64,000 nucleotides of DNA from a virus (IMGVR_UViG_3300022555_000003:178081-242080); one strand, 5' to 3'; shown: positions 53,881 to 64,000, counted from the stretch's first letter. Translations and numbers: made by a program. Notes: generated by a model from the sequence alone, not told the origin.

Positions 53881-54387
53881 ATGGAAATTAAAAATAAATC
53901 TGGAGTGATTTTATATGACACTTTTAACGACTCTTTAGCTGGTATAAATTTAAGTGGTGATAATTTATTTGAATTATGTTTAAGTAGATCTAATTTAGAA
54001 AGTGCAAACTTCGACTTTTCAAACATACGAGAATCAGATTTGAGTTTTTCAAATCTGAAGCACGCCCACATGCGTGATATATATGCAGAATATGTAGACT
54101 TTCATGGAGCAGATTTATATAATGCAGATTTATATAAAGCTAAGTTAAAAGGTTCAAATTTATCTGGAGCAAATCTAAAAAATTCAAATTTATATTGTTC
54201 AGATTTACGTGATGCAGATTTAAGTAATGCTGATTTGAGTGGAGTAAGTATGAGCAGAACTAATTTGTACGGCGCTAATTTAGAAAATGTAAAAATAAGT
54301 GATACAACTTTTATGAACATAACAACATTAATTTCACCAGAAAATCTCACCTATCTGATTTTGCTAGGACTTAAATATGGAAATTAA
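53881..54387 (+). CDS. pentapeptide repeat protein 3
   Basis: Pentapeptide repeats; 42-nt near-identical repeat at 53849-53890 and 54346-54387. Confidence 0.9.
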   Translation: MEIKNKSGVILYDTFNDSLAGINLSGDNLFELCLSRSNLESANFDFSNIRESDLSFSNLKHAHMRDIYAEYVDFHGADLYNADLYKAKLKGSNLSGANLKNSNLYCSDLRDADLSNADLSGVSMSRTNLYGANLENVKISDTTFMNITTLISPENLTYLILLGLKYGN

Positions 54388-57720: not shown

Positions 57721-57721
57721 T

Positions 57722-57755
57722 AAAAATGGCGTACCGTAAAAAGTACGCCATTTTT
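57722..57755. terminator. bidirectional intrinsic terminator
   Basis: AAAAATGGCGTAC / GTACGCCATTTTT. Confidence 0.85.
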
Positions 57756-57761
57756 ATCTAT

Positions 57762-58991
57762 CTACTTAGTTGATTTCTGTACAGAATCGAAATGATCTCC
57801 ATGTGAACTATTTCTATCACAATTTGGTTTTTGACCACGTAAAATTTTAAATGCTCCGTTTTGTATAAGTCCTTTCTGATTCTTAGCCCATTGTTCCCAC
57901 AGAGATAACTCAACTTCTTTTAAGTCTGGACTTTTACTCAATGGTAGAATACCATTTGATTCATATTCTTTTTCAAAGTGTTCAAACAATGTATAATACA
58001 TTTCGCAGGCTTCAGTTTTATTTCTCCAATCTTGCATTATTCCTGTACCTGGGCATTGAGCTTTACACATACTAAAAAATCTACACCCTTTACATCCATT
58101 GTATTCTTGTGGAGTCAGGTATAGAGCCATTTGACGTTCATACCCATGTTGTTCAGCTTTAATAAAGCTAATGCCTTCTTTTGCATTTCGACCACAACTT
58201 AAACTTTCACCTTGCCCACTAACTCCTCTGACTGCATCAGTTGTATAAGGGTCGCAACTATGAAATGTACAAGTTGTAGAATCATCTTCTCCTAACAACA
58301 TTTGTTTAACATCGCCAAACATATCAAATTTTAAATTTTTTAATTCCTTTTCTAATTCACTAAATTCTAACATTACTTCAGCTACTCGTTTACCTGGCAT
58401 TCCCATCTTATCGCCAACGCTATCATATTCAATCTCTAATGGATGCAATCTACAACTACAGACACCTTTATCATCCATTTCTCTAAACCATTGTTTAAGT
58501 TTAGGTAATTTTTCTGGAGTTGAATTTAACTTATGCAATGTTATAATAAAACTTGGTGGTCGACCTATGCTGCATAATTTTTCAGCAGCTAACATACTCA
58601 TTGCAGTACGTCGATTAGTTTCTTCTATGCTTCCAGCCCATCTACCTAGATTGAGTTCATATGGACCATCTACACTCATGCCAACATGCACATTATACTT
58701 TACAAATAAATCAATATGTTTATCAGTAATTAAAGTACCGTTAGTCTGGATACCATTTGACTTGTATTTTTTGAATCCATATTCAAATAATTTTTCTAAC
58801 GTATCAATATCAGTTAATAATGGCTCACCACCAAATATACTAAATTTCCCACCCTCACGATCTAATCCGGCAATCATCTTTTCTAGATCATAATTTGGCC
58901 TATATCCACCAGCATCCCGCATAGGATGTTCATAACAATATGTACAGGCTAGATTGCATAAAATTCCGACGGGGGTCAGCTCCACACTCAA
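57762..58991 (-). CDS. radical SAM/SPASM-domain protein (peptide-maturase type)
   Basis: CNLACTYC (CxxxCxxC), FGGEPLL, IQTNG, SVDGP, SPASM Cys (CTFHSC, SCG, CKGCRFFSMCKAQCP, CEMY); TTG start with AAGGAG RBS. Confidence 0.92.
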   Translation of the reverse strand: MSVELTPVGILCNLACTYCYEHPMRDAGGYRPNYDLEKMIAGLDREGGKFSIFGGEPLLTDIDTLEKLFEYGFKKYKSNGIQTNGTLITDKHIDLFVKYNVHVGMSVDGPYELNLGRWAGSIEETNRRTAMSMLAAEKLCSIGRPPSFIITLHKLNSTPEKLPKLKQWFREMDDKGVCSCRLHPLEIEYDSVGDKMGMPGKRVAEVMLEFSELEKELKNLKFDMFGDVKQMLLGEDDSTTCTFHSCDPYTTDAVRGVSGQGESLSCGRNAKEGISFIKAEQHGYERQMALYLTPQEYNGCKGCRFFSMCKAQCPGTGIMQDWRNKTEACEMYYTLFEHFEKEYESNGILPLSKSPDLKEVELSLWEQWAKNQKGLIQNGAFKILRGQKPNCDRNSSHGDHFDSVQKSTK

Positions 58992-59009
58992 AATAAATCT
59001 CCTTTTGAC

Positions 59010-59078
59010 TAAATAATAGTGTAGTTCGCGGAATTGATGTTCCCAACTACTCTATTACTAAACAGGAGTAACAGCTCA
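59010..59078 (+). promoter_or_regulatory. late promoter plus conserved two-hairpin leader of HNH gene (copy 3 of 3)
   Basis: TAAATA...GTAGTTcgcGGAAT-tgat-GTTCCcAACTACtctATTACT-aaac-AGGAGTAAcagctcaATG. Confidence 0.7.
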
Positions 59079-60005
59079 ATGATATTTATCAAAGACGAAT
59101 TTTCAACAGAGTATTTTCAAATAATTTCAACTGCTCAATTAAGAGCAAACACCAAAAAATTAGCCCAAAAATTATTTCCATTAACAATAATTGAAAAACA
59201 TCATATTATACCTGATTCTTTTTATATAAATCGTAAGCGAGAAGGAAATGGTGGTTGGTTAAGTGGCAATCCATCTGAAATAAGCAATTTAGTATTTTTG
59301 ACATCCAGAGAACATTATAGATGTCATTGGTTATTATCTTTAATGACATTAGATGATATTACATATCATATTTTAGCAAAAGTAAAAATGGCCAATGCAT
59401 TGAATCGTATGAGTGGCAAAGGAGTTAATTTTACAAGATATGAACTATCAGAATCTGAATATGTTTTTGCTAGGAAAAATCTTAGTAAATTATTATCTAA
59501 ATGTATTGTTTCTGAGGGAAGTATCAAAAAACAACTTGCTACTAAATTAAAAAACGGAACACTAAATTGTAGTAGTACAGAATCTATACAAAAAGGATTA
59601 GATACTAAGACAGTTAATAACACATTACCTAGTAATCCAATAATTAAAGATAAAGCTAAAGCTACTAGACTATCTAGATATGGTACATTAAATACTAGTA
59701 GTCCTGAATCTATTGCTAAAATTCTTTCTACTAAAATATCAAATAATACATTAGCAAGTAATCTATTGATAAAAGCTAAAACTAAAGCTACCAAATTAAA
59801 GAATAATTCTGGACCTAGTGCAGCAGAAACTATCAAAAAACAACAAGAAACTAAACTGAAAAACGGAACCTTACAAAATTCTTTAGAAGTTCAAACAAAA
59901 AGTCGTAATACAAAAGAAGCAAATCATAATAAATTTATTTGTGAAATTTGCAAAAAGAAATATAGTTATGAAAAATCACTTGTTAATCATATTGATCGAC
60001 ATTAA
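59079..60005 (+). mobile_element. free-standing HNH homing endonuclease inserted antisense in the radical SAM operon
   Basis: EKHHIIP...NLVFLTSREHYRCHWLL; K-x-K-x-T-K-L repeats; C-terminal C2H2 finger; start moved to 59079. Confidence 0.82.
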
Positions 60006-60631
60006 AATCTCTCCTGAGAAAACAAGTTACTACCATTATAGTATTGACTTTTTAAACTAAGCATCCAAGATTTATAATAACTTCCACATATCGTTTTTTC
60101 ATCGAATGTACAAACTGTTGGTTTAGCAAGTTCCATTTCTTCGTCGGTTTCAAAAATAGATCTACCTAAAATAGAAGTCCAATCTTGTTCTTCTTTTAAC
60201 TTTTTTCCGTACATAGAACTACCTTCAATATACCAATTAGTTTGTTGTTCAATTTCTTTCCATAGTTCAGGTGTTTGTTGTTGACTAATTAATACATTTT
60301 CGTCTACAAATACAATGTAATCTAAATTTTGAGTTTCTTTTAAATATTGTATAAATGCTGGATTGAAATTTTCATCACTAACAGTTCCTTTGTAATAATT
60401 TTCAATTTCACTTCTGGTATGTTCACATAAAGTTAAATGATGATTGTATTTCTTATTGCACCAATTAAGTTTAAATCGTAAAGATTCTTTATAATACTCA
60501 ACATCAGATTCTTTAAATCCGACATGAAAATTAACTATATGATTTTGAAACTTACTTGCTAAATGCCAAAGTCTAACTAAAGTTGAAACATCTACTTCAC
60601 TTGCTGGTGTAACTAAATTAATTGTTTCCAT
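60002..60631 (-). CDS. hypothetical protein in radical SAM operon
   Basis: AGGA RBS, co-oriented between methyltransferase fusion and rSAM. Confidence 0.7.
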   Translation of the reverse strand: METINLVTPASEVDVSTLVRLWHLASKFQNHIVNFHVGFKESDVEYYKESLRFKLNWCNKKYNHHLTLCEHTRSEIENYYKGTVSDENFNPAFIQYLKETQNLDYIVFVDENVLISQQQTPELWKEIEQQTNWYIEGSSMYGKKLKEEQDWTSILGRSIFETDEEMELAKPTVCTFDEKTICGSYYKSWMLSLKSQYYNGSNLFSQERF

Positions 60632-60637
60632 ATTATC

Positions 60638-62101
60638 CTATAAAATATTAAGAATTTTTTCTGCAGGTTGAATCTTTCCAATGTAGGCTTTTACTTGCTG
60701 ATTACCCGAACTATTAGTTTTAATAAATTGTAAACCTAATTTATTTAAAGTCTGCATAGGTTCGGTTACAATATATTGATTAGAACGAGTAACCCAATCA
60801 CCATAGAAATAAAATAATACCCATTTAGTATTATTACTAATCCATTTCATAAAATTTTCACGTTGTAGTTCATTTGATTCTTGAAGTCTGCCAGGCATTA
60901 CGATAGCTAAATCATACTTACGATTCATCCAATCGCCTGCATTATTAAACATATTATCACAATAAAACTTACCTTCAAGTTGATCAGTAATATTATATTT
61001 AATATTATTAAAATTCTTTGTTGAAAGTTCAACACCAAATAATGTACTGTCTTTTAATATTCGTTGTTGAATGTTCTTGAGTAGCTCTCCGTTGCCACAA
61101 CCAAAATCAATAATATCATAATGTACCACAGGATCTAAAATAGTTGCACACTCCATCAAATGTTTGTGGCTATTAATCATTGACTCAAAAGTTTTAAATC
61201 CGTTATCAATCCATTGATTTTCTAATAGTAATCCTCGTTTGAAACTATTATTTTTAGACACAATGCTAGTTGCTTTATTAATATAAGGAAAACTAACTCC
61301 ACTTGCACCTTCATCTGGATAACTAAATCCTTGCCTGTTTACTACAACTAAATCACCTGTTGCATCAGTTCTAGTACTAATTTTAAGGATAGGAGTTTTA
61401 ATTTCAGCTATGCCATGTAATGCTGACCATTGTATTGGCCAATCAAGTATTTCTTCTAGCCAATCCATTTCTTTCTCGTATCCGTTTTGTCTAGCCCAAT
61501 TAATATTTTGTCTACCAATTTGATAAGTTTCATTACAATCAAAACTACAAGGTAAATGACTTACTGCTCTTACTCCTAGCCATCGATTTAATATATTACA
61601 TTCTTTTGGACCATCAGTCCCAGTTAAACTCATTGGATAAGTCGTATCTATAAATTTTTCTTTAATCCAATATTGTTGAAAAAAAGATTGACAACATTTA
61701 GGAAAGCCTAATAACTCACCCATACGAACATTGTCTCTTTGTTTCCATGCTTGTTTCCATACATCCACCAAGTTATGTTTAGTTATAACTACACGAAGGT
61801 CAAATGGTTGATGTTCCTGATGAACCAACGAACTACTACTATAAAAAGATTGTCTTCCAACTTTTTGTAATACAATTGGAGTAAAATTGGTTCCATCAAG
61901 TTCGCTTTTCAATTTGAATAAGCTATCTGGAGACATAATTGTTAACCAGCTAGGTTTAATTCCAGCAAGTGTAGTTTGTTTTTCAATCTGTACAAATGCT
62001 TGACTAACTTGATTTATTCTTGGTTCCCAAACAGTTTTAGCTACCGTAGTAGTCCATATAATACGCGTCCACTCAGGTAATACAAAATTAAGTCTAATCA
62101 A
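60638..62101 (-). CDS. DUF483-like Cys-motif domain fused to class I SAM methyltransferase
   Basis: GELLGFPKCC, HLPCSFDC in N-terminal part; IIDFGCGNGELL, FGVEL in C-terminal part; TTG start with GGAG RBS. Confidence 0.7.
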   Translation of the reverse strand: MIRLNFVLPEWTRIIWTTTVAKTVWEPRINQVSQAFVQIEKQTTLAGIKPSWLTIMSPDSLFKLKSELDGTNFTPIVLQKVGRQSFYSSSSLVHQEHQPFDLRVVITKHNLVDVWKQAWKQRDNVRMGELLGFPKCCQSFFQQYWIKEKFIDTTYPMSLTGTDGPKECNILNRWLGVRAVSHLPCSFDCNETYQIGRQNINWARQNGYEKEMDWLEEILDWPIQWSALHGIAEIKTPILKISTRTDATGDLVVVNRQGFSYPDEGASGVSFPYINKATSIVSKNNSFKRGLLLENQWIDNGFKTFESMINSHKHLMECATILDPVVHYDIIDFGCGNGELLKNIQQRILKDSTLFGVELSTKNFNNIKYNITDQLEGKFYCDNMFNNAGDWMNRKYDLAIVMPGRLQESNELQRENFMKWISNNTKWVLFYFYGDWVTRSNQYIVTEPMQTLNKLGLQFIKTNSSGNQQVKAYIGKIQPAEKILNIL

Positions 62102-62135
62102 CTGAAACTCCTATTCTCAGTGATATTTATAGTAG

Positions 62136-62825
62136 TTAAGGAACATGTACAACAAATTCAGGCTGATCAGCATGTGCAATAGGACTTATATCAGTATGTG
62201 TAGTTGGAATATCTCCATGATCTGTGTGGCTAGGTATATCTCCATAGGTAGTTGAATCTCCATGATCTGAATAGCCAGTACTATCAGAGTGTGGGTATGA
62301 ATCTACATGATCTAAATAACCATGATCATCTGTGTGATCTGTATGATCAAAACCATCTTGAAAGTCAGCATGATCGGTATAACTACTAAAAAAATCAGAA
62401 TGATCGCTAAAGTCACTATGATCGGTATATGCTGGATGATCTGTATGATCAAAAAAAGTATCGCTATAATCAATATGATCGCTATGATCTGTGTGATCAG
62501 AATGTATATCTGAATAATTAGCAAATGCAACATCTGTATGATAATTAACTTTTTGACTGCTATTTAATGTTTTGAGTCTGCTCGATTCTACCCACAAACT
62601 TCCTGCTTTACCAGTTATAGTTGCATCTACAACAAAATTGAGATATCTCTCATCTCCACTAGCATCAATATAATGTAAGTATCCACTTGCATCAATCCAT
62701 GTAGAACCAAGTTTAGCTGTACTCCGATGAGCCACATAGATTCCAGTATATCTGTATTGATCAGACCCGGCATTTAGAAAATTAATGTATACTCCGTCGA
62801 TCCAACACGATCCTGCTTTTGCCAT
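62136..62825 (-). CDS. protein with GSxW[IV][DE] N-terminal repeats and 28 aromatic-X-Asp motifs; candidate radical SAM substrate/virion appendage
   Basis: 18 HxD, 7 YxD, 3 FxD counted in residues 96-220; late promoter ATAAATA and GGAG RBS. Confidence 0.85.
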   Translation of the reverse strand: MAKAGSCWIDGVYINFLNAGSDQYRYTGIYVAHRSTAKLGSTWIDASGYLHYIDASGDERYLNFVVDATITGKAGSLWVESSRLKTLNSSQKVNYHTDVAFANYSDIHSDHTDHSDHIDYSDTFFDHTDHPAYTDHSDFSDHSDFFSSYTDHADFQDGFDHTDHTDDHGYLDHVDSYPHSDSTGYSDHGDSTTYGDIPSHTDHGDIPTTHTDISPIAHADQPEFVVHVP

Positions 62826-62882
62826 AATATATTTCTCCGTTTACAATTAATTTTGTACTAGGACTTACTACACTACTATTTA

Positions 62883-64000
62883 TTAAGTTGCGTAAAGGTT
62901 TGTTCCAACTGGTAATACCAATCGATAATTTGAACTTCCAGTATATCCAATAACACCGTTTACATCTAACTTAGCTAGTGGATTTGGTGCTCCAATGCCA
63001 ACATTTCCAGAAGCTGTAATTCTTACTCGTTCAGAAGATCCTGCTCCACTGGCATTGTTAAAAATAAAATCTCCAGTTGATACCCCTTCTCTACCTATGT
63101 CCCAATAAAATGCTGCATTATTAATTGCAGAGAATCTCAATGAAGGAGTTGCTGATGATCCAGCTATATCAATTTTATTAGCAGGAGTAGACGTTTCAAT
63201 TCCAAAATTGCCATTTATAACATATGTATTACCTGCTGGTGTTATAGCAAATCTTACTACATTACTAGTAAGATCAAAAATGAAGAAATCATTTAAATCA
63301 TTTTGATATAAACTTCTACCTAATAAATATCCATTGATAGTACTATTAGCAGTATTTGAAAATAACATTGTATTCTGAGAATATCCACCAATGATTAATT
63401 TTAATCCAACAGTAGAACTTGATAAATGTAATTTTGCACTAGGTGAAGAAGTTCCAATACCAATATTTCCAATATTATCAATTATCATTCTTAATGTTAA
63501 TCCAGCTGAATTAGTATTGGATGTCAAAAAGTAAAGTGATGTTGGAACATTTCCAGCTGATACAGAACCAGAAACTACTGGTCTTATGTCAGTAACAGCT
63601 TGATATGCTGATCCGTCATATCCATAAGCAGTTAGTTCTCCTAAGACATTTCCATTTGTAACTGCTAGTGGTGCACCAGCTGAACCATTGGCACGTCTCA
63701 TTGCTATTTCACTATTACCACTAAAATAATTAGAATGGATACCTCCAATTACAGTAAGTGGGGATTCTGGACTAGCAGTCCCAATACCAACATTACCATC
63801 AACTATTAATGTAGTATTTGTTCGTATTGACAAATCATTTTGTATACCAATTGATCCATAATATATACCATCAATTCCAAATTGTATTCCATTACTATTC
63901 CATGCACTAGCACCAAGTCTATTAGTTAAATATTTAAAACCTGCATTGTATACATCACCAGTTACATGTAATTTATATGATGGACTTAAAGTACCAATAC
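62883..64000 (-). CDS. tail fiber-like protein, 5' part outside window
   Basis: Repeated GNVGIGTxSPxxxL[DH]V units; frame stays open to 64000, so the track start at 63833 is not the real start. Confidence 0.8.
   Translation of the reverse strand, partial: IGTLSPSYKLHVTGDVYNAGFKYLTNRLGASAWNSNGIQFGIDGIYYGSIGIQNDLSIRTNTTLIVDGNVGIGTASPESPLTVIGGIHSNYFSGNSEIAMRRANGSAGAPLAVTNGNVLGELTAYGYDGSAYQAVTDIRPVVSGSVSAGNVPTSLYFLTSNTNSAGLTLRMIIDNIGNIGIGTSSPSAKLHLSSSTVGLKLIIGGYSQNTMLFSNTANSTINGYLLGRSLYQNDLNDFFIFDLTSNVVRFAITPAGNTYVINGNFGIETSTPANKIDIAGSSATPSLRFSAINNAAFYWDIGREGVSTGDFIFNNASGAGSSERVRITASGNVGIGAPNPLAKLDVNGVIGYTGSSNYRLVLPVGTNLYAT

Follow-up and report, generated by a model that had tools for sequence, protein, structure and literature searches.

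A radical SAM/SPASM and DUF483 gene module beside phage tail-fibre genes and the proposed modification of its aromatic-x-Asp repeat protein

The last 64 kb of the 242,080-bp IMG/VR virus record IMGVR_UViG_3300022555_000003, here called the window (64,000 nucleotides), carries at positions 57,762 to 62,825 a module of four genes on the minus strand that immediately follows a tail-fibre gene. The fibre gene is represented by its 3' part (62883–63998, minus strand), which runs off the window and matches the tail-fibre family phrog_9942 with E = 8e-22. Behind it lie the genes for a 229-aa protein rich in His-x-Asp (HxD) and related triplets (62136–62825), a 487-aa fusion of DUF483 with a methyltransferase identified by Pfam (60638–62101), a 209-aa accessory protein (60002–60631) and a 409-aa radical S-adenosylmethionine (rSAM) enzyme, likewise recognized by Pfam and with SPASM-type cysteines (57762–58991), whose TTG start is preceded by AAGGAG. 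A first-pass annotation of the sequence had proposed these four genes, the stretch that they occupy, their place directly downstream of the fibre gene and the lack of a protease or exporter gene. Open reading frame (ORF) calling, the phrog_9942 match and family searches in the window bear out all of these points, with no protease or exporter found in the module. The annotation overlooked an HNH homing endonuclease gene (323 aa, 59034–60005, plus strand; phrog_655, E = 1e-18), which sits as an insertion between the 209-aa and rSAM genes, on the opposite strand, and does not belong to the module; relatives such as locus L004 hold two small ORFs at this site.

The 229-aa protein consists of three parts, all encoded on the minus strand. 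The head domain (aa 1–95, 62541–62825) is made of three G-S-x-W-[IV]-[DE] beta-hairpin repeats in the AlphaFold2 model. It is followed by a tail (aa 96–220, 62166–62540), the proposed core or substrate region, and by a C-terminal segment (62139–62165) ending in ..DQPEFVVHVP, which corresponds to the conserved H-x-D-Q-P end. The tail contains 28 aromatic-x-Asp triplets, made up of 18 His, 7 Tyr and 3 Phe motifs. These are the numbers that the first-pass annotation had given for the protein, and they hold for the tail; the whole protein has 18 HxD, 8 YxD (7 in the tail and 1 in the head) and 3 FxD. Of 30 Asp residues in the tail, 28 stand two positions after an aromatic residue. Composition-preserving shuffles of the tail (20,000 in number) yielded 8.5 ± 2.2 triplets with a maximum of 17, compared with the 28 observed. 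The DNA underlying the tail contains no tandem repeat beyond three weak 9-nt arrays of 2–4 copies, the fold of the head is conserved, and the ORF is the sole one of its kind in the 242-kb genome; on these three grounds we ruled out that the triplets are a frame artefact of repeated DNA.

In the AlphaFold2 monomer model, built with 39 homologues, the head is all-beta with predicted local distance difference test (pLDDT) values of 88–98 and the tail is an unstructured loop of low confidence. The last strand (residues 223–227, pLDDT 93) packs against the head, and the tail would form a closed loop in which the C-terminal strand returns onto the head. The head bears a weak resemblance to beta-prism II lectins (LlpA, Z 4.4), and its single significant match in BFVD (E = 1.9e-10) is an unnamed entry. 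The head family comprises 545 cluster representatives among 1.84 billion proteins. In 118 of the representatives the sequence extends beyond the head, into an aromatic-x-[DN] tail in 90 cases and into other domains in 28. Because the head also joins other C-terminal domains, it looks like an attachment module rather than a leader for the enzyme. Some head relatives (P0126, P0138, P0152, P0176 and P0177) have a Cys-rich C-terminal domain replacing the HxD tail. Head genes without an HxD tail lie on contigs of 1–3 kb; no rSAM gene directly follows on the two longer ones, L252 and L253 (about 3 kb), which is a weak test.

The same sequence pattern recurs throughout the family. We analysed 104 distinct tails with a total of 22,555 residues, where the position two residues after an aromatic is Asp in 63% and Asn in 21% of cases (84% together), and where 91% of all Asp residues occupy such a position. 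His makes up 72% of the aromatic residues, Phe 14%, Tyr 12% and Trp 3%, and between the aromatic and the third residue there is in most cases a Thr, Ser, Gly or Ala. Some tails are composed almost entirely of Phe-x-Asn or Phe-x-Ser (L004, L045), and others repeat His-Thr-Asp/Asn with a period of 7–9 residues (L007, L033). When placed on the enzyme tree, Phe-x-Asn tails have at least two origins and tails rich in His-x-Asn are found in at least two clades, in each case inside His-x-Asp clades. In 52 of 121 substrate ORFs the motif H-x-[DN]-[QENY]-P falls within the final 25 aa; many tails close with H-x-D-Q-P and a short hydrophobic strand behind it.

Relatives of the module were not found by a nucleotide search of the phage collection, and a single-protein scan of IMG/VR likewise yielded none; a profile was needed. 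In a large protein database the rSAM enzyme has 1054 relatives at E ≤ 1e-10, of which the best 120 are all 45–66% identical to it. With the profile, true family members were found at 80 loci in IMG/VR and at 15 in bacteria, and 65 loci with other rSAM enzymes from the same scan served as controls. A repeat ORF was defined as having at least 8 aromatic-x-[DN] triplets within 60 aa. By this definition a repeat ORF is present at 91 of 105 rSAM-family loci compared with 2 of 65 controls, and DUF483 at 98 of 105 compared with none of 65, in agreement with the co-occurrence of the rSAM and HxD genes that had been set out beforehand as a check. The loci lacking a counted partner are mostly contigs cut near the enzyme or loci with short cores recognized by inspection (L013, L090, L095, L097, L100). 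As the head-domain profile is too variable for contig scans, the reciprocal comparison was made with DUF483 and the representative library; starting from DUF483, a family rSAM was found at 76 of 77 loci and a repeat ORF at 72 of 77.

The most common gene order is substrate, rSAM, DUF483 (about 45 loci), and the order seen in the window, with the substrate followed by DUF483 and the rSAM further on, occurs at about 13 loci. Overall the system extends over at least 113 IMG/VR contigs and five or more bacterial phyla. It includes the cultured Thermus phages Cumys, phiMa and phiLo, whose rSAM enzymes are 45–48% identical to that of the window. In Cumys, the gene for a tail collar fibre is followed by that for a 98-aa protein ending in ..VVLPVGTDRWAP and then by one for a 343-aa protein, in which the three-repeat head is joined to 54 HxD triplets; the rSAM gene and the DUF483 gene come next, in this order.

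The rSAM enzyme matches the radical SAM superfamily (PF04055) with 56.1 bits against a cut-off of 29.5 and has the CX3CX2C motif at C12, C16 and C19. The seven-cysteine SPASM pattern is complete (C246-x14-G261-x4-C266, C300-x2-C303-x5-C309-x3-C313 and C329), and these cysteines together with C241 are invariant in 24 homologues; the Pfam SPASM model has no match to the enzyme at E ≤ 0.01. The protein begins directly with the radical SAM core and has no N-terminal RRE (peptide-recognition) domain. Its nearest NCBIfam profiles are the anaerobic sulfatase maturase (anSME) and the cyclophane formers AmcB, DynA, YhhB and GrrM/OscB, and the nearest solved structures are anSME (PDB 4k36, E = 5e-20) and the triceptide synthase ChlB (E = 2e-10). 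The profile search thus places the enzyme near anSME and cyclophane formers rather than cofactor-biosynthesis or DNA-modifying families, which is the outcome that the first-pass annotation had anticipated. All of the profile scores are far below the cut-offs, with 36.5 bits of 450 for XyeB, 35.6 of 310 for GrrM/OscB, 31.8 of 370 for FxsB, 50.3 of 445 for YhhB, 64.4 of 425 for AmcB, 26 of 370 for HxsB (TIGR03978) and 64.9 of 349 for anSME (TIGR03942), and no sulfatase was found in the window or in related loci. The L170 enzyme shows the same pattern of maturase scores below cut-off. The annotation's assignment to the triceptide maturases is therefore supported in one respect, as an aromatic-X-X substrate lies beside the enzyme at 91 of 105 loci, and fails in another, as the cut-off of every characterised family is missed. 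The enzyme thus represents a SPASM family of its own, which is of the RRE-less anSME/cyclophane-synthase type.

The triplet motif also appears in the enzymes themselves. The C-terminus of the window rSAM carries HGDHFD (57786–57803, minus strand), 63 of 107 family members have H-x-D-H-x-D among their final 80 aa, and the phiLo rSAM has 9 HxD triplets. The HGDHxD end of the enzyme itself ties the rSAM to the triplet motif. These ends could reflect self-modification, autoinhibition or substrate mimicry.

The second conserved partner, the DUF483 domain (aa 1–299, 61205–62101, minus strand), matches PF04467 with 25.7 bits against a gathering cut-off of 25, and with 28 bits in a six-frame search of the genome. 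Residues C136, C137, H182, C185 and C189 are nearly invariant in an alignment of 60 sequences. Its AlphaFold2 model has a pLDDT of 94.8 and a fold that matches DUF483 entries in AlphaFold DB, and Foldseek found no relative of the model among solved structures in the PDB. Similarity to 2guk (VIA Z 7.3, residues 30–150 only) was not convincing and that to NleE (Z 4.5) was not trusted. DUF483 also occurs fused to SPASM rSAM enzymes (P0081, L098 and entries of AlphaFold DB). In the window it is fused instead to a class-I SAM methyltransferase domain (60638–61204, minus strand), whose matches to Pfam Methyltransf_25, 31, 23 and 12 (residues 328–419) are just below gathering scores and whose best solved relative is the plantazolicin methyltransferase BamL, at only E = 0.018. 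The DUF483 proteins of the Thermus phages lack the methyltransferase domain.

The position of the module suggests a connection to the phage fibre. Upstream neighbours are tail or tail-fibre proteins in the window, in Cumys and in several unrelated IMG/VR lineages. The last 14 codons of the window fibre gene (62886–62927, minus strand) encode the C-terminal peptide ..LVLPVGTNLYAT, and a peptide of the form [LVI][LVI]P[VF]G[TVA][DN]x[WFY][AV] ends the gene immediately upstream of the head+HxD gene at 25 distinct loci, including Cumys gp14. Perhaps this conserved peptide docks on the three-repeat head, with one fibre chain per head repeat. HxD regions are also found within fibre proteins. A J-like central fibre (phrog_31, Phage-tail_3) has an internal HxD region and ends in ..PIAPVGTDKWVPS just before a head+HxD gene, and proteins of 766–1476 aa, one of them with Laminin_G_3, carry a C-terminal HxD region directly before the rSAM gene. 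The earlier claim of a virion protein gains from the adjacency to fibre genes in independent lineages and from these fusions, which are also the observations from which we infer the location.

In bacteria the enzyme pair stands beside HxD proteins that have no head, in Thermodesulfobacteriota, Rokubacteria, cyanobacteria, Chloroflexota, Planctomycetota and Acidobacteriota. These proteins share the leader F-[TS]-R-R-x-L-[IL]-x-A-G-W-x-V-P-[VI] with an A-x-A site behind it, present at loci L008, L170, L171, L090, L092, L100 and L104 and in five or more phyla; in its sequence the leader looks like a twin-arginine signal. The number of motifs in a core varies between more than 30 and as few as two or three (L090, L100). 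Neighbouring genes encode a fusion of the peptide chaperone PqqD with an aKG-HExxH peptide beta-hydroxylase (TIGR04267, 73 bits against a cut-off of 40) as well as an HprK-related kinase and an NTP_transf_5 nucleotidyltransferase, a combination typical of peptide-maturation clusters. The bacterial HxD clusters are an uncharacterised maturation cassette in their own right. They have PqqD and a leader, whereas the phage loci contain no RRE, protease or exporter and do not represent a pathway for peptides made on ribosomes and modified after translation (RiPPs) in the strict sense.

These results lead us to propose, as a reasonably likely interpretation, that the module is a conserved phage tail-fibre accessory system that modifies the HxD protein, likely by forming three-residue cyclophanes. 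Based on gene linkage across the family, it is very likely that the rSAM/DUF483 pair acts on the HxD protein, and nearly as likely, from gene position and fusions, that this protein is located in the virion. If the enzyme–substrate relation holds, we consider crosslinking to have a somewhat better than even chance of being the chemistry involved. Triceptide synthases join an aromatic carbon of residue i to the C-beta of residue i+2, and known pairs include Tyr-Asp for YxdB, Trp-Asn/Asp for OscB, Phe-Asn for XncB and OscB, and Phe-Ser for MscB; HaaB, YhhB and HtkB form links at His-C2, and HtkB tolerates replacement of His by Phe or Trp (PMC11002830, PMC11499958). The natural variation of the tails, including His replaced by Phe, reproduces this substrate space, and for that reason we rank serial formation of three-residue cyclophanes as the likeliest chemistry.

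In the proposed mechanism, the three-repeat beta head would dock the small protein on the tip of the fibre encoded upstream, displaying a long loop that consists almost entirely of aromatic-x-Asp/Asn triplets. The SPASM rSAM and DUF483 would modify the triplets one by one in the host cytoplasm before assembly, as the gene linkage suggests. A hydrogen would be abstracted from the Asp or Asn beta-carbon and the resulting radical would add to the aromatic ring two residues earlier, leading, in the manner of triceptide synthases, to three-residue cyclophanes in series. Most versions of the system, but not all, have the fused methyltransferase, which could add methyl groups; methylation would be optional because the Thermus versions lack this domain. 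DUF483 may be the substrate-handling partner needed by an RRE-less rSAM, or a second catalyst. The product would be a distal fibre surface that is rigid and resistant to proteases and heat and at the same time competent to bind metal. In bacteria, the same enzyme pair would act on exported HxD proteins with a twin-arginine leader.

Several observations weigh against this interpretation. The crosslink chemistry is something that we infer for all members, and with the rSAM far under all curated maturase cut-offs, the chemistry cannot be transferred by homology. The single best relative of the enzyme, anSME, acts as an oxidase rather than as a crosslinker. Conservation of the rSAM is unusually high: the enzymes of Thermus phages and of cold-water phages are about 50% identical, a level not typical of RiPP maturases. 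None of the enzyme positions was found to covary with Phe-x-Asn substrates, and a single weak column does so with Asn-rich ones. Three bacterial loci (L096, L102 and L103) show no substrate within 8 kb, no function of DUF483 is given in the accessible literature, and the presence of the repeat protein in the virion is deduced from gene position and fusions. Finally, metal binding in a trimer would be another role to which His-x-Asp in a beta strand is suited.

The last point leads to a different scenario, in which the tail chiefly binds metal in a trimeric fibre and the rSAM modifies the same protein in another way, such as epimerisation, beta-oxidation or decarboxylation of Asp, or prepares ligands. 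His and Asp at positions i and i+2 face the same side of a strand, as in the iron-binding HxH of T4 gp37, and the 7–9-residue periods of some tails resemble fibre repeats. An oxidase as the closest relative and a peptide beta-hydroxylase in the bacterial clusters would fit this scenario, beta-hydroxy-Asp and beta-hydroxy-His being classical iron ligands. According to PMC11705849, which cites Bartual 2010, HxH iron sites are established in fibres. We nevertheless regard this scenario as unlikely. Entire Phe-x-Asn tails retain the same enzyme pair, and Phe is no metal ligand, yet can act as a radical acceptor; furthermore, the i/i+2 aromatic rule is exactly that of the triceptides, and known proteusin epimerases are not SPASM enzymes. 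A more far-reaching reading, likewise unlikely, is a ribosomally encoded, enzymatically crosslinked, siderophore-like metal-binding polymer that phages would carry at the fibre tip for metal capture or for docking on metal-uptake receptors, and that bacteria would export by the twin-arginine route as a protein metallophore. If true, it would provide a molecular basis for the 'Ferrojan horse' idea, represent the first rSAM modification of a virion protein and define a function for DUF483.

Two further scenarios would leave the HxD protein either outside the virion or unmodified. Its gene lies directly after the fibre gene, the usual place of a chaperone, and its head joins other C-terminal domains in the 28 of 118 representatives without an HxD tail; the protein could thus be a fibre assembly chaperone or transient cap similar to gp38 or Tfa, tuned by rSAM and DUF483 and not kept in the virion. 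This appears improbable given that HxD regions are also part of large fibre proteins and that the bacterial homologues are exported and unrelated to fibre assembly. Alternatively, rSAM and DUF483 might modify DNA, a nucleotide or a host target, with the HxD protein being an unmodified part of the adjacent fibre. The methyltransferase fused to DUF483 would be in line with such a role, and cyanobacterial homologues have been reported near deazapurine DNA-modification genes (PMC11437467). That suggestion is weakened by the cyanobacterial loci that we examined, L090 and L171, because both encode HxD substrates that have the common leader, together with PqqD, the kinase and NTP_transf_5, and neither has deazapurine genes within 8 kb. 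Moreover, the linkage to HxD genes spans phages with unrelated replication modules and five bacterial phyla, SPASM enzymes with two auxiliary clusters are typical for peptide or protein substrates, and the enzymes bear the motif on their own C-termini. On the basis of the HxD linkage, the SPASM type and the cyanobacterial contexts we rejected DNA modification as the principal explanation and consider it very improbable.

Comparison with known systems helps to define what the proposed fibre-modifying module would add. The triceptide synthases (XncB/XyeB, OscB/GrrM, MscB/FxsB, YxdB, HaaB, YhhB, HtkB, ChlB) are likewise RRE-less SPASM rSAM enzymes. Their substrates contain repeated aromatic-X-X motifs with His, Tyr, Phe or Trp first and a third residue that has a beta-CH2 (Asp, Asn or Ser); each substrate has several motifs, and one enzyme is often accompanied by several substrate genes. 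In contrast, the enzymes of the present family score 32–78 bits against cut-offs of 310–450 and form a separate family. Their presumed substrate is a folded, virion-associated protein of 200–1500 aa with up to about 100 motifs instead of a short peptide made of leader and core. Protease and exporter are both missing from the phage versions, DUF483 is an obligatory partner, and the chemistry is a predicted one. Similarities to anSME include the rSAM core and SPASM domain with two auxiliary clusters, the lack of an RRE, a whole-protein substrate and abstraction of a C-beta hydrogen. The present family differs in its TIGR03942 scores (65–74 bits compared to 349), in the absence of a sulfatase or a C/S-x-P/A-x-R motif, and in its partner and substrate. 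The His-Xaa-Ser system (HxsA–D) also combines a His-rich precursor of tripeptide periodicity with SPASM rSAM enzymes. It differs in having two rSAM enzymes instead of one, whereas here the motif is HxD, DUF483 is present and the HxsB score is as low as given above. The bacterial HxD clusters resemble the NCBIfam HPr-rel-A/PqqD/nucleotidyltransferase cassettes in holding an HprK-related kinase A-like protein, PqqD and NTP_transf_5. T4 gp37 shares His-based i/i+2 motifs in a distal phage fibre (PMC11705849), but the motif here is HxD, occurs tens of times per chain, may give way to Phe-x-Asn and is linked to the rSAM in every case; the motifs of the window tail are HxD, YxD and FxD rather than HxH.

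A search of the literature on radical SAM, SPASM, triceptides or RiPPs in combination with phage tail fibres or HxD found no description of such a system. The novelty claimed in the first-pass annotation stands with regard to the maturation of a fibre protein, but the module as such had already been noted, as the 'rSAM module' of the Thermus phages Cumys and phiMa, for which DNA modification was proposed (Viruses 2024, PMC11437467). The Thermus module is the same system, with an rSAM 45% identical to that of the window, DUF483, and an 'unknown' third gene that is the head+HxD protein. It differs from the window module in lacking the methyltransferase fusion, and PMC11437467 did not recognise the repeat protein as a substrate. 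What we describe is probably a previously undescribed enzymatic modification of a virion protein by ring-forming crosslinks. Judging from the gene neighbourhoods, maturation of aromatic-X-X motifs by a SPASM-type enzyme appears to be directed here at phage fibres and exported bacterial proteins, with DUF483 as an obligatory component. Should the crosslinks exist, the module would, as far as the literature shows, provide the first rSAM maturation of a phage structural protein, and chemistry of the natural-product type would be building a receptor-binding organelle rather than a secreted peptide. The reach of triceptide-like chemistry would grow from peptides that have a few motifs to folded proteins that have as many as about 100. 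DUF483 would gain a role, and the Thermus phage module, tentatively viewed as DNA-modifying, would be reinterpreted.

The remaining features of the locus are less directly related to this proposal. The 209-aa protein has no match in Pfam, NCBIfam or PHROG, and its gene is conserved at only 19 of 105 loci, which constitute the T4-like subgroup. The ESM Atlas neighbours of its low-confidence model belong to glycosyltransferase families GT8, GT2 and GT6 (TM about 0.56), and it possibly has a GT-A glycosyltransferase-like fold. Glycosylation is conceivable because Thr or Ser mostly occupies the middle position of a triplet and the 209-aa protein has these GT-A-like neighbours.

As for transcription, the sequence AATAAATA, which resembles a T4 late promoter with one mismatch, overlaps the fibre stop codon (62877–62884, minus strand), and an exact TATAAATA lies 22 nt upstream of the DUF483-methyltransferase start (62124–62131, minus strand). 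The motifs for the late promoter that had been proposed for the operon are thus present, at the level of motifs only, and TATAAATA is not enriched within the window (14 counted compared to 17 ± 4 expected). A terminator-like hairpin with a perfect 15-bp stem directly follows the rSAM stop codon (57721–57756, minus strand) and may end transcription arriving from either side. Elsewhere in the window, the translation of 53881–54387 (plus strand) resembles a pentapeptide-repeat protein. Outside the window, contig G000:C1 has long low-complexity repeats at about 61.9–69.3 kb and at 75.8 kb, which are seen as off-frame ORFs rich in W, N and Y and probably represent fibre repeats, collagen-like or other, that were translated in the wrong frame.

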